The notes under the pieces: generated by a model
Databases searched by the model: none
The model's input: only the letters and a program-made list of their open reading frames with translations
What the model was told of the DNA's origin: nothing
In this document: positions 20,441 through 36,211 of the stretch, one piece after another
Layout of the letters: every line of letters begins with the position of its first letter
Position numbering within the stretch: the first letter of the stretch is position 1
Program-made: the position numbers and the translations under genes
Source: a virus
Virus record (IMG/VR): IMGVR_UViG_3300045988_154892
DNA: 64,000 bases
Direction: 5' to 3' (one strand)

Positions 20441-20468
20441 ATGTATGTCTCCTTTTATAAAAAAATAA

Positions 20469-20551
20469 TACCGGCAGCGAGACTCGAACTCGCACTGCTC
20501 ATAACAATCTGGGCTTAAACCAGATGTGTCTACCAATTCCACCATACCGGC
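20469..20551 (-). tRNA. tRNA-Leu (anticodon UAA), class II
   Basis: Hand-folded cloverleaf: GCCGGUA acceptor, GUGG-AAUUGGUAGA-CAC D-arm, UCUGG-UUUAAGC-CCAGA anticodon arm, long variable arm, GCGAG-UUCGAGU-CUCGC T-arm. Confidence 0.8.
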
Positions 20552-20586
20552 ATACGGAGGCACTGCCTCCATTCGCTAATTATATA

Positions 20587-20676
20587 CGGAGCCTGTGGGA
20601 TTCGAACCCACGCGCCGTTGTTAGCGGCCTGTCAGTTTTCAGGACTGATCTCTTCATCCAACTTGAGTAAAGCTCC
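20587..20676 (-). tRNA. tRNA-Ser-like (anticodon UGA), class II, unusual C at position 33
   Basis: GGAGCUU acceptor, UCAGU-CCUGAAA-ACUGA anticodon arm, GCCG-cuaacaa-CGGC variable arm, GUGGG-UUCGAAU-CCCAC T-arm. Confidence 0.65.
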
Positions 20677-20686
20677 AAAACAAAAA

Positions 20687-20770
20687 TGAGCAGAGTAGGA
20701 GTCGAACCTACGGTGTTTCTAATGTGACGGATTTACAGTCCGTTGCTATCGCCACTAAGCACATCTGCCC
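20687..20770 (-). tRNA. tRNA-Tyr (anticodon GUA), class II
   Basis: GGGCAGA acceptor (one G-U pair), ACGGA-CUGUAAA-UCCGU anticodon arm, GUAGG-UUCGACU-CCUAC T-arm. One extra nucleotide before the D-stem. Confidence 0.75.
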
Positions 20771-20803
20771 ATAAAAATAGGAGAGTAGATTGCTCCACTC
20801 TCC
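20771..20803 (-). terminator. intrinsic terminator after DUF262 gene
   Basis: Minus strand GGAGAGUGGAGCAAUCUACUCUCC followed by UAUUUUUAU. Confidence 0.65.
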
Positions 20804-20838: not shown

Positions 20839-21816
20839 TTATAGATTATCTACGACTTTATTCCAATACTGTAGACGAGCTTTAACGCCAGCAGAAGCAG
20901 TAGTTCCAGACTGTACGAGCTGTTTATATGCTTCATTGGAATCATAATTCTCAGCAAACTCATTTACCGCAGCTTCGAATTTTCTAAAATCTTTTCCGTC
21001 TTTAATACATTTATAACCGCCATACAGGATCATTGGGATAGAAGTAGATTTTACCTTGATTACTTCATCGCCTGTATTGAAAGCATCTAATACATCTGTT
21101 AATATACTGATATCAGTAGCATTGATATTTTCATCATACCAAACAACAAAACTGTCAATATCTTTCGCTCTAAATGATGTAAAATCATTTTCTTCATTTG
21201 TATTAATCAGCATAAGGGTTTCGCGGATCAGATCACGCTGAACATCTTTCTTATATTGTGCATCAGTAAGGATTTTCTCAAAGAACTCATGATCTGCAAA
21301 ATTAAAGATAACGTCACTTACTTTTTCACTCTCGATTGCTGTACGTTTTTGAGTATTGTTTAATGGTTTACCATTATTCTGACGAGTAAACATTTCTCGA
21401 ATATCTTCCCCAGTACAATCAGTAAACACATAGATTGTCATCTCATAATCATTTAATTTATCTTGTACAGCCTCATCAAGCTGTGCATATTTTTTACCAG
21501 CAATTTCATATACATCGCCATCAACTGTAACTGGTTTTAAATTTTTAGCCAATCTAAAACCATCTTTTTTAAAAAAGTCTCTTACTGTGGTAGCTCGCTG
21601 AACACCATCAAAAATTCTTCTTACATCGTCAGATCCGACTTCGCATCTAATTGGATCAATTGGATACGGACGAAGCATAGAGTCAATCAGTAAACTTTTC
21701 TGACGATTGCCCCACTGATTTTCCTGGCGTTGAAACTTGTGTTTCATACTGTATTTTCCTTTTGTGATATCTTTCGCAAAGTTCTTTGCACTCTGTCTTT
21801 TTACTACATAGTCCAT
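20839..21816 (-). CDS. DUF262 (GmrSD N-terminal / ParB-like) domain protein without a DUF1524 nuclease half
   Basis: FQRQENQWGNRQKSLLIDSMLRPYPIDPI and FDGVQRATT match the DUF262 signature. The C-terminal ~150 aa are unassigned. Confidence 0.75.
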   Translation of the reverse strand: MDYVVKRQSAKNFAKDITKGKYSMKHKFQRQENQWGNRQKSLLIDSMLRPYPIDPIRCEVGSDDVRRIFDGVQRATTVRDFFKKDGFRLAKNLKPVTVDGDVYEIAGKKYAQLDEAVQDKLNDYEMTIYVFTDCTGEDIREMFTRQNNGKPLNNTQKRTAIESEKVSDVIFNFADHEFFEKILTDAQYKKDVQRDLIRETLMLINTNEENDFTSFRAKDIDSFVVWYDENINATDISILTDVLDAFNTGDEVIKVKSTSIPMILYGGYKCIKDGKDFRKFEAAVNEFAENYDSNEAYKQLVQSGTTASAGVKARLQYWNKVVDNL

Positions 21817-23687: not shown

Positions 23688-24728
23688 TTAACAATCTATA
23701 TTTTTAGTGTTTTTATAATTTTGTATAAATTCTTGTATCTGTTCTGGAGTATTATTTTTTTCTCCATATAAAGAATGAAAACTATTTGGGTATTTTATAA
23801 GGTGACATGCTTCACATAATGTAATACCATTGTTTATATCGTATCTTAAGTCTGGATAATCTGAAAAATTATATAAATGATGGGCGTTTAAATTACTACC
23901 ACGTTTCCCACAGCATTGACATGTATAATTATCCCTATCAAATACTTTTCTAACCCACTCTTTGTAGTATGTATTATTTCTTGCCATATGCTGTTCTGTT
24001 GTCGAAAATCCATCAAATTCATCTAATGGAATACCTCGTTGTCTACATGACGATTTAATACGACCTTGCAACGTAGATTGTGACTCACGTACTTTTCTAT
24101 AACCATCTTTTTCTTCATAATAAACAGAAAGTAGTTCACTTCTTGTTGGAATAGTGTAACCATATTCTTTTATTAAAGAAATTACGGTATTACCTGTTGT
24201 ATTATATTGTTTTGCAATCTCTTCAGATGTCATATGCTTAATAAAATACATCATATATAAGATTTCTTTTGGTAATATGTTTTTCAAATTTCCATATTTT
24301 GAAATATTGAATTTTGAAATCCATCCACGCAATGTTCGTGTATTTATATCGCATTCTTTTGCAATATCTTCAGCATTCTTATTTTTTACTATATATTCGT
24401 TATACAGCCATTCTTTATTTCTGTAAGGGATTTCTATAAAATATAATTTCCCATTTTCATCTCTATATTTCTTTTTATGGCTTAAACATTCTTGGCAACA
24501 ATAAAGATCTGATCGTAAATTCAAATAATCTTTATAAGGCATCTTTTTTATTTGATTACAGAAATCACATTGCACATCAACATTAAGCGTCGATCCAGAT
24601 GTTAAATCTTGAACATTTACAAAAAACTCATCTAAATGTTTTGTATAAATATAACCTTTATTTTCATAATGTTTTCTTGTATTTCCAGTCCATTTTATTT
24701 TAACTTGTTGTGGCAATACTAATCCCAT
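23688..24728 (-). CDS. free-standing HNH homing endonuclease with HTH repeats
   Basis: 346 aa. C-terminal CQCCGKRGSNLNAHHLYNF...NGITLCEACH. Two similar HTH segments (AEDIAKECDINTRTLRGW / SEEIAKQYNTTGNTVISL). Confidence 0.85.
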   Translation of the reverse strand: MGLVLPQQVKIKWTGNTRKHYENKGYIYTKHLDEFFVNVQDLTSGSTLNVDVQCDFCNQIKKMPYKDYLNLRSDLYCCQECLSHKKKYRDENGKLYFIEIPYRNKEWLYNEYIVKNKNAEDIAKECDINTRTLRGWISKFNISKYGNLKNILPKEILYMMYFIKHMTSEEIAKQYNTTGNTVISLIKEYGYTIPTRSELLSVYYEEKDGYRKVRESQSTLQGRIKSSCRQRGIPLDEFDGFSTTEQHMARNNTYYKEWVRKVFDRDNYTCQCCGKRGSNLNAHHLYNFSDYPDLRYDINNGITLCEACHLIKYPNSFHSLYGEKNNTPEQIQEFIQNYKNTKNIDC

Positions 24729-24904: not shown

Positions 24905-25672
24905 TTATGTAGCAGAAATATTCTTTACCCACTGATCATAATTTTCGATAATCCATTTTCTACCTTTTTCAGTCCATTTCAGACATGGAGCAGCATTCTT
25001 TGCAGTATAACTCTGATAATCTGCATATCCTTCTATAATTAGCCATTCATATTCAGCATATGGACACCATGTTCCAGATTGATTCTTAAAAATAATATGA
25101 TTAAGATTCATAATCTCATTAAGTTTTTGAGCACTTCTATAACCAAGATCCTTTGCTACAACGGTAGTAGTAATTAATCCGTCTTTATTAAGAACTTCAT
25201 CATGATATTCAACTTTTGGTTTCTGTTCCTCAATTTCTGCAACAAGTGGAGCAGTTTCGATCTCAACAAGCCGTTTATGGGCATAAGCGACTTCACTTGG
25301 GTCTTTACTAAACAACTGTAATTTTAAACGTTCTTCTTCAGAAAGTGTTGTCCCAGATTTTAACGTTTCTTCCATGGCGTTGAATGCATTAATATATTTA
25401 AGTTTCCATTCAAGAGCCTTCTTACCAGTAAATCCCATTGCAAGTAATGAAAACCCATCACGATTAACAAGAAAACAACGATATTCTTTTCCACGAGAAT
25501 TTACATATGTAGATTCATTAAACATTTCACTCCACAAAATTGTGGAGTCAGATTTTAACATGTTATCGATATCTCTTAAAACTTGATCATGCCTTTTGCC
25601 AAATTTTTCTGCAATATCATTGCTACTTGCTACCACTTGCCCTTTTTCTTCTTTTAAAATAATTTCGTTCAT
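24905..25672 (-). CDS. Rha-family regulatory protein with KilAC-type antirepressor C-terminal domain
   Basis: 255 aa. The N-terminus VVASSNDIAEKFGKRHDQVLRDIDNM is typical of Rha. The C-terminal half resembles AntA/KilAC. Confidence 0.65.
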   Translation of the reverse strand: MNEIILKEEKGQVVASSNDIAEKFGKRHDQVLRDIDNMLKSDSTILWSEMFNESTYVNSRGKEYRCFLVNRDGFSLLAMGFTGKKALEWKLKYINAFNAMEETLKSGTTLSEEERLKLQLFSKDPSEVAYAHKRLVEIETAPLVAEIEEQKPKVEYHDEVLNKDGLITTTVVAKDLGYRSAQKLNEIMNLNHIIFKNQSGTWCPYAEYEWLIIEGYADYQSYTAKNAAPCLKWTEKGRKWIIENYDQWVKNISAT

Positions 25673-25754: not shown

Positions 25755-25905
25755 ATTGCTGGTGCGATAGGAACATACCCTATACATTCGTTCCACCAAT
25801 AAAGATGAGATAGGAGAGTATTAACCATCCTATATTACTCATTATCAGGTTATCCACCCGTCTCTAATCATTTATTCTCTGCATTCGTTTGCAGAAAATT
25901 GTAAA

Positions 25906-25977
25906 CAGGAAGTCAGGGATTCGAACCCTGATTGACAGTTTTGGAGACTGTCGTGTTGCCAATTACACTAACGACCT
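25906..25977 (-). tRNA. tRNA-Trp (anticodon CCA) with two acceptor-stem mismatches
   Basis: GUGU-AAUUGGCA-ACAC D-arm, ACAGU-CUCCAAA-ACUGU anticodon arm, CAGGG-UUCGAAU-CCCUG T-arm. Acceptor AGGUCGU/ACUUCCU has U4-U69 and C5-U68. Confidence 0.6.
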
Positions 25978-26019
25978 GTATTTGAGTGCGTAAGCTGCAG
26001 TCTTACACACTCAACAAAA

Positions 26020-29696: not shown

Positions 29697-30935
29697 TTAA
29701 TCTAATAAATCTGCCATAGCTGCAGTTTCACTTCGTTCTGTTTTCTGAAGCTGTACATAACCAAATTTTGTATGTCCTGCAAGTTTTTGTACAGTGGATA
29801 GTAAACCATTATTCATTCTAAAAAGAGTAGAATCTGTTTGTTTAAAATCTCCGTTCATCCAAAGAGCAGATCCTTCACCAACTCGTCCAATAAGAAGCTG
29901 GACATGTTCTTTTGTTAGATTTTCTGCTTCACTAACGTAGATAATCGCATTTTTAATATCTCGTCCTCGAATATAACCGAGATGTTCAACTTCAATATTT
30001 CCTGCCATAATCTGCATTTCCAGACCATTTTCTCCACCAAGGTGATCTGCTAACGGCATTGCAAATGGCAAAATCTTCTCAAATTTAGTACCAGGTAAGA
30101 AACCAACCTCATTTGCATCTTTTACGCCAATTGCATTTCTGACATAAATTAATTTCTCAAATTTTCCTTCTTCGATTAATTTGATAGCATTTGCAATCAT
30201 GAGATAGTCTTTTCCACTACCAAATCTACCTGAGATAACTTTGATTGTCTCTTCTTTGTCCTGTAGCATATCAAATGCTAAAACCTGTTGTGGGTTTCTT
30301 GGTTTGATTTTGCCCATAAAATGACTATTGATTTGTTTATAAGAAATAGGATGATATTCTTGTCCATTCCATTTTCTGTAATCAACAACCTCACCATCAT
30401 TCTTTCGAATTATCAGATATTCATTCAGAAGTGAATCATATTGATTTTCATTTAAATGTAAATAAAAATAACTCATTTCCTCATCAGAAAGAGTTACATC
30501 TTTGTATCCTGTATATTCATCAATATTTTTAACAAGATTTATTTCATTTACACCTTTAGTTGGTAGTTTAAAAATATTTTTTGAAATAAATTTACAATTG
30601 AGATCGTCTGTACAAACAATGACAGGAGATACATTTCGATTATATAAAACTGCTGATGCAAGAATAATGTTATCAGGTGTTTCCTCTAAGTAATATCCTG
30701 CAAGAATATTTTTTACATCTGTGTTAGTTGCGACAACCTCATATTCTCCATAATGCTCATCCAGCATATGAGCCGTTTGTCTGGCTTTGTATTTAACTTC
30801 ATTATCTTTATGACCTGAAGTCTTAATACTTTCAATCTCTTCAAGCGTCTTCTGTGAGATAATAAAGGGTTCTTTAAAAGCTTCCCTTTGCAAATTCAGA
30901 AGAGCATTGGTATCTAGGAATAATTTAAATTCCAA
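29697..30935 (-). CDS. PIN-domain plus PhoH-like ATPase
   Basis: N-terminal LFLDTNALLN (PIN). SGRFGSGKDY (Walker A), YVSEAENLT (PhoH DEAQN-like), GDFKQTD (PhoH GDxxQxD-like). Confidence 0.8.
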   Translation of the reverse strand: MEFKLFLDTNALLNLQREAFKEPFIISQKTLEEIESIKTSGHKDNEVKYKARQTAHMLDEHYGEYEVVATNTDVKNILAGYYLEETPDNIILASAVLYNRNVSPVIVCTDDLNCKFISKNIFKLPTKGVNEINLVKNIDEYTGYKDVTLSDEEMSYFYLHLNENQYDSLLNEYLIIRKNDGEVVDYRKWNGQEYHPISYKQINSHFMGKIKPRNPQQVLAFDMLQDKEETIKVISGRFGSGKDYLMIANAIKLIEEGKFEKLIYVRNAIGVKDANEVGFLPGTKFEKILPFAMPLADHLGGENGLEMQIMAGNIEVEHLGYIRGRDIKNAIIYVSEAENLTKEHVQLLIGRVGEGSALWMNGDFKQTDSTLFRMNNGLLSTVQKLAGHTKFGYVQLQKTERSETAAMADLLD

Positions 30936-30968
30936 TAATTGATACCACCTTTCTCATTAAATTTCGCA

Positions 30969-31181
30969 TTAGCGATGATATAATTTTTTTCTATAATTTT
31001 CGAGTAGTCTCATATTATGAGGAGTCTCACACAAATAGAATTTTTTACGTTTATGACATGATTCCGAATGGGATACGCCGCCTTCCGCATAAGGAACTCC
31101 ATGCTTTACTAAATATTCTTTCTCTTGTTTAGTAATGAGTACTATATTAATGCACACCTTTCGTTTTAAATTTCTTTGCAT
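30969..31181 (-). CDS. hypothetical small basic protein (start uncertain)
   Basis: Only the part downstream of the tRNA is plausible (MQRNLKRK...ITKQEKEYLVKHGVPYAEGG...). The first 26 codons of the track ORF overlap tRNA-Ile. Confidence 0.4.
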   Translation of the reverse strand: MQRNLKRKVCINIVLITKQEKEYLVKHGVPYAEGGVSHSESCHKRKKFYLCETPHNMRLLENYRKKLYHR

Positions 31182-31200
31182 TTGCCACAAAGATAAATAG

Positions 31201-31274
31201 TTGGGGTGGTAGGACTCGAACCCACGACCGTTCGGATATAAGCCGAATGCTCTCACCAACTGAGCTACACCGCA
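31201..31274 (-). tRNA. tRNA-Ile (anticodon UAU)
   Basis: UGCGGUG acceptor (C3-C70 mismatch), GCUC-AGUUGGUGA-GAGC D-arm, UUCGG-CUUAUAU-CCGAA anticodon arm, GUGGG-UUCGAGU-CCUAC T-arm. Confidence 0.7.
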
Positions 31275-32147
31275 ATAATGCTACATAAGTAGCAAAATAA
31301 GTACGCTGAGATTAAACGTATCTTCGGAAACCTTTACCGACATTATTTTTTCTTCGGTTATCCACTATATGTTGCTTGCGCACACATATAGTATCTTCCA
31401 CAACCGCCTTTTAAGAAGAGGCTTATCTTCTTTGCTGTATGACTACTCAAGTTTCATCATTCCATTAACACTGCCGTGCTACAAATCTCTGCTAAGAGAA
31501 CTGTGCAGAATCCGCTTAACACATCCAGATATTGCGTATCTTTCAGTGTGTGTATTACCTCAAAAGAGATTACACATTTTGGCTGCTTACACCATACAGA
31601 GGTACAGACTTTCGCTTGTATAATTTGTTTACCTTTTGCATTAAACCAATTTTTATATTCTTCCTGAATATACTAATTAATAGAAACGAAATTGAATACA
31701 GAAGACGCGCTGCACCAGATGTTTCGTTATCTTTTGGATAACAAAATCCATCACGCCTTCGTAGCTTTCGGTTATAATCCCTACTCGCATCCTGCATAAG
31801 CTAATTTGGCATCTCTACCAATTCACTTACCCAAATGGACATCGCACTTGTCTAATAAGGACTCGCACTATATATCCTCCTAATTCCCCATCATATCTTC
31901 ATAGGTTCGCGTGAGCTATTCTGTTGCGCAGAAAAATGATTCTCAGCGGTTGCCCCTGAATCACCTTGTTGCTCCCTATTTCCTGACACTATTTCCACAC
32001 AGGATTTACTCGTTTTACCGGTATGAAACAGCACTTTTTGAGTGCCTGGGATGTTAGTTTTGCATAGATTGACCAATTTTCATGGCGACGAGTTGTAAAT
32101 TCGCCTTTAATACGCTCACACGCATCTATCTGTGCTATGCCACGAGT
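31275..32147 (-). ncRNA. large ORF-free structured region, candidate giant ncRNA (GOLLD/ROOL-like context)
   Basis: About 870 nt without a credible ORF, flanked by tRNA(-like) genes. Many minus-strand-specific helices including GNRA-capped 31391-31365 and an 11-bp helix at 31576-31549. Confidence 0.45.
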
Positions 32148-32218
32148 TGCGGGACTACGAGTCGAACGTAGCTTTAGAGAATATGAATCTCTCGTGGAAC
32201 CGATCCAGCATATCCCGC
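32148..32218 (-). tRNA. tRNA-like element with CAU anticodon loop (Met or Ile2 type), non-canonical D-arm
   Basis: GCGGGAU/GUCCCGC acceptor, AGAGA-UUCAUAU-UCUCU anticodon arm, (C)UACG-UUCGACU-CGUA(G) T-arm. 70 nt plus discriminator. D-stem pairs poorly. Confidence 0.45.
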
Positions 32219-32308
32219 GATAATACTGGCAAACTATTATATCTGCCAGTAAAAAAATAAAACATAAAAGAAAGAGGAGATAATTATGAAATTAACATAA
32301 AGAATTAA

Positions 32309-32340
32309 CCTTTTGAAAGGGCGGCAGAGAGTAACCGCCC
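32309..32340 (-). terminator. terminator-like GC hairpin
   Basis: Minus strand GGGCGG-uuacucucug-CCGCCC followed by UUUCAAAAGG. The U-tract is weak. Confidence 0.4.
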
Positions 32341-32456
32341 GTTGAATAGACTACAGGTTTTGTTTCTTCCGGTATAGTCAGAAATAAAAAATGATTATTT
32401 ATTCCCTTCAAAGAAAAATAATTTTTTTTGAAAAAGAGACAAAAATCCCAACAAAA

Positions 32457-33308
32457 TTAAGCATTTTTCATACTGTCAGCTTCGAACATTTTATGGTTTC
32501 TCAATTTCTTCATGCGATCTTTTGCTTTTTCTCGATCAATTTCTTCGGCACACTTACTACAATAAATCCTATTTGGTGCAGTCATTTTAACTCTTTTTCC
32601 ACATGATGGATTTGCACATTGTCTATATCCTTTTTTGAAGTTACCGATATATTGATTCCCTAAATTAGAAAATTCTTTTATCTTATATACCACATTATCA
32701 GATTTAGCTAAATTAACTCTAATATTCAGGTTATCTATTTGTTTGCCAAAATAAATATAACCATTTTTATATAACTCATGAAGCAGTTCGTTTTTTTTAT
32801 CCGACGTAAGAGTAATATTTGCCAATTTAAAAATTTCAGACATTCCTCTAAGATCCTTTTTATTAATCCATCCATCAGAATCCATATAACGAGCTACGGC
32901 ATATAAAGTAAACATCAATTTCTTTTGTCTGTCATTAGGAAGTGAGTTAATAAGATCAATTTCTTCTTGATAAATTGGAACATATTTTAATTCTCTGAGT
33001 TGTTTGTCCTTTTCATTAATTTCTTCCTTTTTCTTTGACTTTTTATCTTTCTCGTTATCATAAAAAATATCACATACTTTCTCAATTTTGCGAATCCATT
33101 TATATTCCTGATAGCCATAAATCATCATATCGGAAATCTTATTTGTAACGATTTCAACTAACTGTTTTTTTTCTATATTTTCATTGTTAATATAATAATA
33201 TTTTGCTGTTAAAACAATCAAATAGCCAATAGATAGATCTTCTGGTTTCTTCTTTGAAGCCAGAACAGATCTAATATAATCCTTCTCATTCAGTATATAC
33301 ATTTTCAT
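32457..33308 (-). CDS. hypothetical protein with C-terminal zinc ribbon
   Basis: Start set at MKMYILNEK, overlapping the end of the RNAP-like gene. C-terminal CANPSCGKRV...CSKCAEE. Confidence 0.6.
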   Translation of the reverse strand: MKMYILNEKDYIRSVLASKKKPEDLSIGYLIVLTAKYYYINNENIEKKQLVEIVTNKISDMMIYGYQEYKWIRKIEKVCDIFYDNEKDKKSKKKEEINEKDKQLRELKYVPIYQEEIDLINSLPNDRQKKLMFTLYAVARYMDSDGWINKKDLRGMSEIFKLANITLTSDKKNELLHELYKNGYIYFGKQIDNLNIRVNLAKSDNVVYKIKEFSNLGNQYIGNFKKGYRQCANPSCGKRVKMTAPNRIYCSKCAEEIDREKAKDRMKKLRNHKMFEADSMKNA

Positions 33309-35799
33309 TCTCCATTTCTTCCAAACGTTTAATAAGCAAGTCACCAATACAGTCCCAACAAAACTGTCGATTCCCCTTATACCCATAGGTAATATCAAGG
33401 ATAATATTCATGCGCTCTTCATCATTTGGACAAAGTTCAATAGCCGCTTGCCTAAATTTTTCGCATAAATATTTTCTGTTATTATTTGATTGTTCTTTGT
33501 CGGAAGACCTGTTTGCTTTATACTCCTTAATACATTCACGATACTCTTGTTCAAGATCATGTAAAGCTTTTCGATGTTCTTCTGTACATCGACGTTTAAC
33601 TTTTAAACAATTGTAATCAAAAGTAGAATCATGATGCAATTGTGATTTATATCCGTCTAATTGACTTTCAACATACCAGCAGATTTTATTCATTGCACAT
33701 GCTCCAATGCCAACCGGCATTTTATACTCATACCAAAATAAAAAATCCTTTTGTTCGTCAGTTAAATTATCCTTTTTACTATATAAATCTTGAATACTAC
33801 AATCATATAATGCAGCGCATTTTATCTCGCTTTCCTTGATATAGTTCTTATACTTACGTTTAATCTCATCATAAATATAGATCATAAAATACGGTTTTCG
33901 ATAAGCACAAATTGATTGCAAATAATGATTATCTTTGCAAGCACCAAGATTATACCAATATTTTGCCATTGGCTTTGCAATAATTCCTTTGATTTTATCC
34001 AATTCATCCTGTTGGTGAAGCTGTCCACATTCAATACGATATAATAAATCATTATATTCATTAGACCCCTCTTCAAATCGTGACAAAACTTCGATCATCG
34101 AAGTAACACGATTTGTAATCTGCCCAACCTGATTTCCCATGCCGTTTTTATTTGTTTTTTTGACTTCTTTTTCATTAATAATAATCTTATTGGCTTTTCT
34201 TTGAACACATTCAATTGCTAATAATTTTCTAAAACAACGAAGTAAGACTTTATTATTGGTTGAATATAAAAGATCGCCATCCCAATCACAACCGTTTTCC
34301 GCCACACAAAAAGAATCCCATGCATTGATAATCATAATAGTATCCATATACTGATACCAATACAAACACTCTTCATTTGAAATTACATTGCATTTTCGAA
34401 TATTATTGTGAGAAGTCATTGGACTTCGAAAGATAACTACAGAATCTACAGATTTGTCAATCCAGAATTTTGAGTAGCATTGATCAGCTTTTAATAAGCC
34501 AGTTATTTCTAGGCCACAAATTGATTGCATTAACGCAAACGGATCACCACTAGCAATTTGATAATTACCATTTACAATTAATTTACCAATTTTTGCATCA
34601 TTTATTTTCTTCTTAATATACCTATGAGTTGAATCGATAATATACGGATCACCAAGCATATATTGGCTTGTATATAATGCGCGTTGCCATGAATTCACGT
34701 CTGTATTTTCATTAATTCCAAGAAATTTAATAGTGGATTCGTAGTCTCCACACATCGCATCTTTTAAATGCTGAATGGTAGGATTGCACAATTCTTTAAT
34801 ATCATCATCAGTGAATTCATAAGACTGTAAATATTGATAATTTAATTCACGTTCTTCATCTAAAATACGAGGAGAAATTTTCGTAACTGCAAATTCATAT
34901 CCACACTCTCTATATGCGGCAATATATTCGTCAATACTTTCATATGCCGACCATAATTTCAATGAAGATTCCGTGAGAATCATTTCGCACTCTCGAATAT
35001 CCTGCACATTACCCCAAATATCCTCGATAAAATAATTCCCACCATTATATTTTTCGATAAACTCTATAATTGGGAAAGGATAGAGCATACCTTTTAACCA
35101 GGCATTTCGCAAACATACACCTGCAGGAGTATAATCTAATCCAAGAGATTCAGCGACTCTTTGCATGTATCCAATAGTGCATAAATTAAACCCATCAGAC
35201 ACTGTATTTTCCATTACTTTATGTTTTTTTTCACGAATTGGCTCACCGTCTCCAACCCCACTATCGAGAGAAATTACATCATCTTCGTATTGAGTAATGC
35301 AATCTTTTACAACTAAAATTCCATGTGGTTCGCAAATTGGCTGCGATGCAGAGCAAGTTAACGCTTTATATGCTTCATATTTTGCTGGAACTAATGGCAC
35401 TTCTTTGTTTCGCCTACACTCACATAATTCATTTAGTTTATCTATGTATTCCGAATTACAAAATAGAAGAGTATTATTCTTCAAACCACCTGTTGTTCCA
35501 ACAAAACGTCTATAATTTATACCATTTACAGTAACACCTTTTCTGTTTGTCGCTCTTGCAAAATCTGTTTTCTGGTCAATAACGACTTGCATAAAAAGTT
35601 TCGAAAAATCACATTTCCATTTTGCTTTCTTCATGATTTTCTTTGCCATAATTCGAAATTGCTGACCTTCAAATAATGAAACAGATTCTTGGTATTTAAA
35701 TGCTTCTTTTTTATCAATATTCAAATTCCATTTAGAATATTTTAATTTATCTGTTCCAATTTTAAAAATCTCATACTGAGGTACATTAATACCTGCCAT
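33286..35799 (-). CDS. YonO-like single-subunit two-barrel RNA polymerase (RdRP-fold)
   Basis: Start set at MAGINVPQ behind a GGAGGA RBS (837 aa). VVIFRSPMTSHNNIR and ENGCDWDGDLLYS match the R-x-P...hpgD and D-x-D-G-D catalytic loop of cellular RdRP/YonO-type polymerases. Confidence 0.65.
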   Translation of the reverse strand: MAGINVPQYEIFKIGTDKLKYSKWNLNIDKKEAFKYQESVSLFEGQQFRIMAKKIMKKAKWKCDFSKLFMQVVIDQKTDFARATNRKGVTVNGINYRRFVGTTGGLKNNTLLFCNSEYIDKLNELCECRRNKEVPLVPAKYEAYKALTCSASQPICEPHGILVVKDCITQYEDDVISLDSGVGDGEPIREKKHKVMENTVSDGFNLCTIGYMQRVAESLGLDYTPAGVCLRNAWLKGMLYPFPIIEFIEKYNGGNYFIEDIWGNVQDIRECEMILTESSLKLWSAYESIDEYIAAYRECGYEFAVTKISPRILDEERELNYQYLQSYEFTDDDIKELCNPTIQHLKDAMCGDYESTIKFLGINENTDVNSWQRALYTSQYMLGDPYIIDSTHRYIKKKINDAKIGKLIVNGNYQIASGDPFALMQSICGLEITGLLKADQCYSKFWIDKSVDSVVIFRSPMTSHNNIRKCNVISNEECLYWYQYMDTIMIINAWDSFCVAENGCDWDGDLLYSTNNKVLLRCFRKLLAIECVQRKANKIIINEKEVKKTNKNGMGNQVGQITNRVTSMIEVLSRFEEGSNEYNDLLYRIECGQLHQQDELDKIKGIIAKPMAKYWYNLGACKDNHYLQSICAYRKPYFMIYIYDEIKRKYKNYIKESEIKCAALYDCSIQDLYSKKDNLTDEQKDFLFWYEYKMPVGIGACAMNKICWYVESQLDGYKSQLHHDSTFDYNCLKVKRRCTEEHRKALHDLEQEYRECIKEYKANRSSDKEQSNNNRKYLCEKFRQAAIELCPNDEERMNIILDITYGYKGNRQFCWDCIGDLLIKRLEEMENENVYTE

Positions 35800-35806
35800 A
35801 TATTTT

Positions 35807-36211
35807 TTATTCCTCCAAAATCTTATATTCTCCATCGCCAACACAGACAATAATTCCATACTGATGTAGCTCTAAATCATTAAACATACCACCAACTTGA
35901 AGATAGTCTTCAGAAATGTTTTTCAATTTCATACAATAAATTTCACCATCATATTTAATCGCACCAAGCATTTCATTCTTTTCATTGATTGCAAAAACAA
36001 CACAATAATTGCAATCTTGAGTATCTACAAATTCATAACAAAAATCATAGATGTCATCATCATCTTCAAGTAAAACATTCATTTTCTCACCACATCCGCA
36101 TTCACAAACTGGCGCACATAACATGTTATATTCAGAATCTAATCCAAAATCCTTAAGTTTAAAATTTTTAAAATTCCATACAAAATCTATAATATTTGTA
36201 TTAATATTCAT
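35807..36211 (-). CDS. hypothetical Cys-rich protein
   Basis: Start set at MNINTNIIDF behind an AGGAGGA RBS. It overlaps the deaminase stop by 4 nt. Confidence 0.55.
   Translation of the reverse strand: MNINTNIIDFVWNFKNFKLKDFGLDSEYNMLCAPVCECGCGEKMNVLLEDDDDIYDFCYEFVDTQDCNYCVVFAINEKNEMLGAIKYDGEIYCMKLKNISEDYLQVGGMFNDLELHQYGIIVCVGDGEYKILEE

Follow-up and report, generated by a model that had tools for sequence, protein, structure and literature searches.

Positions 31275-32147 of the window, by which we mean the whole 64,000-nucleotide stretch of viral DNA analysed here (IMG/VR record IMGVR_UViG_3300045988_154892), almost certainly harbour the GOLLD RNA gene of a phage. An Rfam scan of the whole window, in which all 4227 families were applied at their gathering thresholds, matched GOLLD (RF02032) at 31303-31761 on the minus strand with 195.9 bits (E 1e-53, model positions 1-416 of 416, not truncated), the curated gathering score of this family being 150 bits, and GOLLD was the sole non-tRNA family among the 4227 to be matched in the window. 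As cmsearch with the Rfam models matched RF02032 over the full model, the membership of the RNA in this family, which reportedly goes back to Weinberg et al. 2009, can be regarded as decided. The RNA proper occupies approximately 31303-32147 on the minus strand (~845 nt) between two tRNA-type elements, and its GOLLD relatives are 819-893 nt in length. An earlier note on this DNA, made from the letters alone, had proposed a giant RNA of the GOLLD or ROOL type; GOLLD was borne out by the score of 195.9 bits against the cut-off of 150, ROOL was not, since it gave no match at E<=1, and an undescribed large phage RNA, the other possibility named there, is not supported. Taken as a whole, a GOLLD RNA gene (RF02032) of an uncultured large tailed phage, which lies in a tRNA-linked cassette and by analogy would form a cage, is very probably the best explanation of the data. 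The region 31275-32147 is thereby explained, and its annotation should read GOLLD.

The region is non-coding, without three-nucleotide periodicity and without conserved ORFs. No credible gene had been seen in it before, and indeed only ORFs of 42-84 aa overlap it, all broken in relatives, while a check of the homologues for the protein-like codon-position conservation of a degraded gene showed this to be absent. The idea of a decayed protein gene, or of real small ORFs of 61-84 aa, can draw on the presence of ORFs of this size and on stop-free stretches of up to 106 codons in the window region, but the longest such stretch in the relatives is only 55-65 codons, and in relatives at 65-71% identity none of the window ORFs stays open, each being broken by 1-7 internal stops or frameshifts. 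In comparisons of the window with three relatives, substitutions were distributed over the codon phases as 89/79/71, 98/91/90 and 93/89/98, thus without codon-position bias in the 239-281 substitutions per comparison, and the variation inside helices was compensatory. On these even phases, broken ORFs and compensatory changes a protein-coding remnant was rejected, and we consider it extremely unlikely. ROOL, like the RNA of the window, is a large and ornate phage or prophage RNA found near tRNA islands; it also forms an RNA-only nanocage, and is unrelated to GOLLD in sequence and fold. The size of the region and its phage and tRNA setting suit ROOL as well (PMC5737381), but a search of 30900-32500 on both strands, with permissive filters and at E<=1, returned no Rfam family beyond GOLLD and tRNA, in agreement with the whole-window search. 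ROOL (RF03087) and the group I and group II intron models were without a match both at gathering-score level across the window and in 30900-32500 at E<=1, and were rejected for this lack of an Rfam match; that the region represents another known large RNA, be it ROOL, a group I or group II intron or part of an rRNA or tmRNA, is thus just as improbable as a coding origin.

Phage context and relatives of the RNA

The window is a phage genome, with genes for a terminase large subunit, portal protein, head maturation protease, exonuclease and helicase (PHROGs, Pfam), and the terminase, portal and protease genes confirm the phage context that had been proposed from the sequence. The portal protein is <=30% identical to those of large siphoviruses of Bacillus, Brevibacillus, Alicyclobacillus and Lactococcus, which weakly suggests a Bacillota host. 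A megablast comparison of 24 kb around the locus with 50,697 phage records gave no match, and the phage itself is therefore without a close sequenced relative. Identification of the host via prophages did not succeed: a scan of genome contigs (596 Gb) for the GOLLD 3′ motif returned 120 loci, none of which resembled either half of the RNA in nhmmer, and these loci are attributed to chance because 16 specified bases should turn up ~280 times at random in a sequence set of this size.

Homologues of the RNA were sought by blastn in phage records and by nhmmer in IMG/VR loci, and were found at full length. The blastn search of phage records yielded one homologue, located on a 176-kb phage contig from human faeces (MT835469.1) and covering window positions 31305-32143 with 67.5% identity, in which GOLLD was also called by Rfam (172.6 bits). 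The IMG/VR scan for the conserved GOLLD 3′ motif returned 120 loci, of which 43 were confirmed as GOLLD by nhmmer, with about two thirds being chance matches. By identity to the window the homologues form groups of five at 92-99%, a dozen at ~70%, two at 67% and one at 65%, followed by a more distant group. The bit scores of the window's clade (173-196) are well under the 306-340 bits of lake-type GOLLDs from the IMG/VR motif scan, with 196 bits for the window itself against >300, yet above 150, and hence define a divergent subclade. The RNA is an additional GOLLD in this divergent subclade of uncultured and gut phages, and not a new RNA class. At four of the lake-type loci, a phage tmRNA (Rfam, 65-94 bits) was located ~130-700 nt from GOLLD on the opposite strand (L047 4989-5396, L074 4386-4803, L015 5916-6334 and L054 358-765), a recurrent GOLLD-tmRNA neighbourhood of which we found no mention in the GOLLD literature consulted.

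The genes around the RNA form a module consisting of an 857-aa protein, a 313-aa protein, a tRNA or tRNA-like element, GOLLD, one or more tRNAs and then PhoH, a protease or an exonuclease, and this order is common, partly or wholly, to the relatives. The first large gene downstream of the cassette (29697-30935, minus strand) encodes a fusion of a PIN domain with a PhoH-like ATPase, the architecture of PhoH2-type RNase/helicases, and the corresponding position in L021, L078 and L017 is held by a copy that is near-identical in the first two and 77% identical in L017; a functional link between this gene and the RNA cassette is speculative. Further along the minus strand, the window encodes a GmrSD_N-domain protein (20839-21816), an HNH endonuclease with HTH domains (23688-24728) and a Rha/KilAC antirepressor-type protein (24905-25672). 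Additional tRNAs on the same strand as GOLLD were detected as a tight cluster of Leu(UAA), Ser(UGA) and Tyr(GUA) at 20468-20771 and as Trp(CCA) at 25905-25978. On the other side of the cassette, an ORF with a TTG start (32457-33398) shares 113 nt (33286-33398) with the ORF 33286-35859, and the 313-aa ORF probably starts further downstream than the mechanically assigned TTG. Opposite the cassette, on the plus strand at 32274-32300, a strong Shine-Dalgarno-like GAGGAG is followed after 6 nt by an ATG and a four-codon mini-ORF (MKLT*); this segment is unchanged in the near-identical L078, L021 and L063, which may be a coincidence.

Structure of the two RNA domains

The region stands out by its composition, with a G+C content of 0.36-0.45 across 31150-32350 against 0.25-0.33 in the flanking genes, as the earlier note had remarked. 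Its view that the minus strand is the structured one was also upheld, with folding energies of -223.5 kcal/mol (z -2.6) for the minus strand versus -176.4 kcal/mol (z -1.25) for the plus strand, and G-U pairs are numerous among the conserved pairs of the minus-strand structure. Two helices had been quoted as working on this strand only, and both are present as described: the reverse complement of plus 31365-31391 reads CUAUAUGU-G-UGC-GCAA-GCA-ACAUAUAG, and that of plus 31549-31576 reads UGUGUAAUCUC-UUUU-GAGGU-AA-UACACA. They fall inside the 3′ domain (31303-31761) and coincide with helices of the Rfam GOLLD consensus, and the helix at 31549-31576 covaries in relatives (alignment columns 231-240 with 249-260).

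The conserved 3′ domain, which comprises the 459 nt of the RF02032 match (31303-31761, minus strand), contains a hypervariable internal linker of 82 nt at ~31618-31699 (minus strand). The linker is visible in the 3′-half alignment of relatives, where it separates the first hairpin from the conserved J motif AAGCGAAAGUCUG (31605-31617, minus strand), and in the window it has no tRNA inside. The RNA shares with the GOLLD family the J motif AAGCRAAAGUCU, the CGCAA loop, GAGUAG, GUGGAUAA...AUAAU and the 3′-terminal UAAUCUCAGC. It differs from RF02032 and from env-38, a GOLLD of solved structure, by a 25-nt insertion in the linker and by a 10-nt extension, which lengthens one hairpin and gives it a GNRA loop. 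The hairpin at 31365-31391 thus carries a GNRA (GCAA) loop on a stem that is 10 nt longer, and this GCAA loop is not conserved across all relatives. The CGCAA loop is kept, together with its G-C dinucleotide, as ACGCAAU. In the Rfam alignment of the window, several model pairs are non-canonical and one region has a low posterior probability.

The Rfam GOLLD model spans only the conserved 3′ half of the RNA. The 5′ domain, the variable 'cap' half at 31762-32147 on the minus strand (~385 nt), lies outside the model and was characterised through nhmmer homologues, RNAalifold and covariation. Searching with window positions 31762-32146, nhmmer gave full-length matches in ~30 of the 120 loci from the motif scan. 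From an alignment of 19 sequences, of which 17 are distinct, RNAalifold obtained 105 pairs in 18 helices, and a long-range pairing is predicted between GCAUAG near the 5′ end and CUAUGC ~85 nt downstream. Compensatory changes were present in 40 of the pairs in the 5′ half and in 41 of the 66 predicted pairs in the 3′ half, which are counts of pairs and not of events, with the sequences representing only ~4-5 independent lineages. In the 5′-half structure, 98.8% of the cells were paired, compared to 37-43% in slid controls with the 3′ partners shifted by 1-3 columns; the same controls had 1-6 compensatory pairs versus the observed 40, and none of 500 column shuffles reached the observed covariation. 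Covariation among homologues, on which the earlier note had let its proposal depend, is therefore strong in both halves of the RNA.

As the 5′ half is outside the Rfam model, the RNA might be a chimera or a new large RNA class, in which the resemblance to GOLLD is confined to the 3′ half, while the 385 nt of the 5′ half form an unrelated and undescribed structured domain with a function of its own. An HMM of the window's 5′ domain matched the env-38 5′ half at E 0.031 and 1 bit only, which is not significant, and no sequence similarity between the two 5′ domains was detectable with this imperfect, machine-read env-38 copy (816/835 nt). Similarly, a covariance model of the first 109 nt of the 5′ domain gave only marginal matches in lake-type GOLLD loci (E about 0.13). 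However, these marginal matches, at three loci representing two distinct sequences, were all on the correct strand and ~145 nt upstream of the 3′ domain, a consistent placement that is unlike chance. GOLLD is defined by a conserved 3′ domain combined with a variable 5′ domain (PMC12286853, PMC12990946), and divergence of the 5′ half is thus expected, while the sizes of the two halves (~385 nt and 459 nt for 5′ and 3′, respectively) are similar to the 420 and 413 nt of env-38. Furthermore, the order hairpin-GAUAG-hairpin-UAAAG-hairpin-hairpin-GCAA can be read by eye in env-38 too, in the same imperfect copy. A chimeric origin is very unlikely, and homology between the window's 5′ domain and the canonical GOLLD 5′ domain, with its P1-P13 architecture, is plausible.

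Flanking tRNA-type elements and proposed transcript processing

As had been claimed, tRNA-type structures are present on both sides of the RNA, with a tRNA-Ile(UAU) at 31200-31274 and a CAU cloverleaf at 32148-32218, both on the minus strand. The tRNA-Ile was called by ARAGORN and by the Rfam tRNA model (65 bits), its CCA is not encoded, and it is separated from the GOLLD 3′ end by a 28-nt spacer (31275-31302, minus strand) containing the hairpin GCUAC-UUAU-GUAGC and no U-tract. The CAU element adjoins the first GOLLD helix with a gap of <=1 nt. In the MFE fold it forms a cloverleaf, in which the acceptor, anticodon and T arms (T loop UUCGACU) are intact and the D stem has 3 bp instead of the canonical 4, and here too the CCA is not encoded. 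It was not called by ARAGORN at default settings, and as tRNA-Met(cat) at 95% thresholds only, and a 171-nt search with Rfam RF00005 gave no match at E<=10; the element is best described as tRNA-like, or as a degenerate tRNA-Met. An initiator-type C1:A72 acceptor was considered for this element and rejected, as the ARAGORN register gives a normal G1-C72 pair.

Same-strand tRNAs were located <=53 nt upstream and/or <=29 nt downstream of GOLLD in 28 of the 29 close and intermediate relatives. Both sides were occupied by called tRNAs in 20/29, and a downstream tRNA only was called in 7/29, among them the five closest relatives, which have the window's tRNA-like element upstream, and L095. Only upstream tRNAs were found in L051 and none were called at default thresholds in L012, with the tRNA counts of L095 and L051 being limited by their sequences ending upstream and downstream of GOLLD, respectively. 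Upstream tRNAs, where called, are mostly tRNA-Met(CAT), with Gln in the distant group, and have their ends 8-53 nt from the start of GOLLD, and the downstream tRNA starts 13-29 nt after GOLLD. Every one of the flanking tRNAs has the orientation of GOLLD. The position upstream of GOLLD is taken by a canonical tRNA-Met(CAT) in L003 and L001, which have a spacer of 52-53 nt with a hairpin between tRNA-Met and GOLLD; in L017 the tRNA has acceptor mismatches, and in L012 it takes thresholds of 80% to recognise the tRNA-Met element. The gap from the 3′ end of the tRNA or tRNA-like element to GOLLD is <=1 nt in the window, L017 and L012. The upstream tRNA-Met(CAU) elements can be arranged as a decay series, from canonical (L003/L001) via marginal (L017, ~1623-1694) and sub-threshold (window, 32148-32218) to nearly unrecognisable (L012, ~940-1020), and no member of the series has lost the T arm or the 3′ acceptor strand ...GCAAC. 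The lake-type GOLLD loci have no immediately adjacent tRNAs, and a position between tRNAs is thus neither a universal feature of the GOLLD family nor one that it could depend on.

In three relatives (L041, L044 and L084) a tRNA is located inside the GOLLD linker, which agrees with published descriptions (PMC12990946, PMC12286853). The linker tRNA of L084 (4389-4464) was assigned a four-base anticodon 'ggtt' by ARAGORN, which beside other GOLLD loci also reported a further tRNA of undetermined type as well as a 'tRNA-Stop(tta)' and a 'tRNA-Tyr(ata)'. These odd GOLLD-associated tRNAs could be phage tRNAs that act in suppression or frameshifting, or else copies in decay.

The layout suggests how the RNA may be produced. 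The tRNA-Met-like(CAU) element, GOLLD and tRNA-Ile(UAU) would be transcribed as one minus-strand precursor, which is the most economical reading because there is no room for a promoter between the tRNA-like element and GOLLD and no terminator in the 28-nt spacer. In Bacillus, tRNA precursors without CCA are established substrates of RNase Z. Cleavage by this enzyme behind the discriminator base of the upstream element, which likewise has no CCA, would generate the GOLLD 5′ end at ~32147, whereas the GOLLD 3′ end would result from RNase P cutting at the 5′ end of tRNA-Ile, leaving a tail of <=28 nt. We favour such co-transcription and processing of GOLLD by tRNA enzymes with modest confidence, and GOLLD RNAs have been described as lying near tRNAs and possibly being co-transcribed with them (PMC5737381). 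Alternatively, GOLLD could be an independent transcription unit whose ends are set by its own promoter and terminator and not by RNase P and RNase Z, the flanking tRNAs being mere neighbours in a tRNA island. The 52-53 nt hairpin spacers of L001 and L003, where a separate promoter is possible, the lake-type GOLLDs without abutting tRNAs and the poor quality of the upstream tRNA in the window and L012 all speak for this arrangement. Against it, the gap of <=1 nt in the window, L017 and L012 leaves no room for a promoter, the downstream spacers of 13-29 nt have no terminator, and the flanking tRNAs are all on the same strand. We regard a separate unit as rather doubtful. Consensus scans for promoters and terminators were at chance level, with 5 promoter-like sites found versus 5.3 expected. 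By eye, a TATAAT -10-like hexamer can be read at 32236-32241 on the minus strand, ~18 nt upstream of the tRNA-like element, and is a candidate promoter of the cassette. A G+C-rich hairpin (GGGCGG-N10-CCGCCC) followed by UUUC, likewise read by eye at 32319-32340 on the minus strand and missed by the scan due to its loop of >8 nt, could act as a weak terminator for the 313-aa gene that lies upstream, and would then separate this gene from the RNA cassette.

A further-reaching interpretation of the processing model is that the gut-phage subclade represents a distinct architectural variant of GOLLD, with its own covariation-supported cap and a fixed position between two tRNA-type elements, in which the tRNA-Met has decayed to a non-decoding 'processing handle' that is kept for RNase Z. 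We put this forward as a tentative and, on present balance, unlikely proposal.

Comparison with solved GOLLD RNAs and implications

The env-38 GOLLD (PDB 9MEE, Kretsch et al. 2025, PMC12286853) is 833 nt in length, lies downstream of a Met-tRNA and forms a D7 14-mer cage, in which the 5′ half (residues 1-420) makes up the cap and the 3′ half (residues 421-833) the ring (PMC12286853). The RNA of the window has in common with env-38 and the GOLLD family the full-length covariance-model match, a length of ~840 nt, the combination of a 5′ half with a conserved 3′ half, and the hypervariable linker. It further shares with env-38 its phage origin and its location directly downstream of a Met-type (CAU) tRNA, although this upstream tRNA is degenerate in the window. 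The GOLLD of Streptococcus agalactiae was solved as a 12-mer (PDB 9L0R), and its 3′ domain alone as a 10-mer (9LMF) (PMC12990946). It resembles the RNA described here in its Bacillota association, which for the window is only a probable one. Its half-shells are joined by a tetraloop/receptor contact of loop L24, and the equivalent hairpin of the window ends in a GNRA loop. The S. agalactiae RNA is ~700 nt in length and lacks several 5′-domain helices, compared to ~845 nt for the window RNA. Finally, tRNA arrays of Mycobacterium/Mycolicibacterium contain a GOLLD in which a tRNA is embedded (Morgado et al. 2020, cited after PMC12990946). The RNA of the window shares with them the setting in a same-strand tRNA array, and the relatives L041, L044 and L084 also the tRNA inside the linker. 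The 82-nt linker of the window itself is free of tRNA, and host and mobile element differ.

By analogy with the solved GOLLDs, the RNA would fold into a 5′ 'cap' and a 3′ 'ring' domain, and roughly 12-14 copies would then self-assemble, with no protein involved, into a closed homo-oligomeric nanocage that has the hypervariable linker on its inner side. The solved members differ in cage stoichiometry, which is not predictable from sequence. On the strength of this analogy, we consider it likely that the GOLLD of the window forms a cage. In contact B8 of env-38, the G-C dinucleotide of the CGCAA loop self-kisses between the half-shells (PMC12286853 Suppl. Table 2), and an A-rich loop makes an inter-half-shell A-minor/tetraloop contact in solved GOLLDs (PMC12990946). 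The CGCAA loop retained in the window fits what would be expected of a cage, as does the GNRA loop of 31365-31391, which by comparison appears to sit at the position of an inter-half-shell contact loop; the env-38 sequence was taken from a machine-read PDF (816/835 nt) with its numbering reconciled only locally, and the mapping is thus confined to B8 and does not extend to B7 and B9. Expression of GOLLD rises during phage lytic growth (PMC12286853). The most plausible direction for the role of the cage would be the sequestering or presenting of translation components (tRNAs or ribosomes) in lytic growth, a translation-related role being favoured because the tRNA linkage is constant.

GOLLD is among the largest and most elaborate bacterial and phage RNAs and forms protein-free nanocages, and the present instance leaves this general picture unchanged. 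It does add a well-documented divergent subclade from uncultured phages, comprising ~30 loci and including one human-faecal homologue, as well as a covariation-supported structure for the 5′ domain that is outside the Rfam model. It also adds a very tight tRNA-GOLLD-tRNA layout, with tRNA or tRNA-like elements <=53 nt upstream and <=29 nt downstream. This tight layout makes the idea of co-transcription and processing testable, since the ends of GOLLD are then expected at RNase Z and RNase P sites. If the upstream element indeed serves as a processing handle, there would be a mechanistic link from the tRNA-processing machinery of the host to the maturation of GOLLD and perhaps also to its function, and the divergent cap could yield a cage of different stoichiometry.
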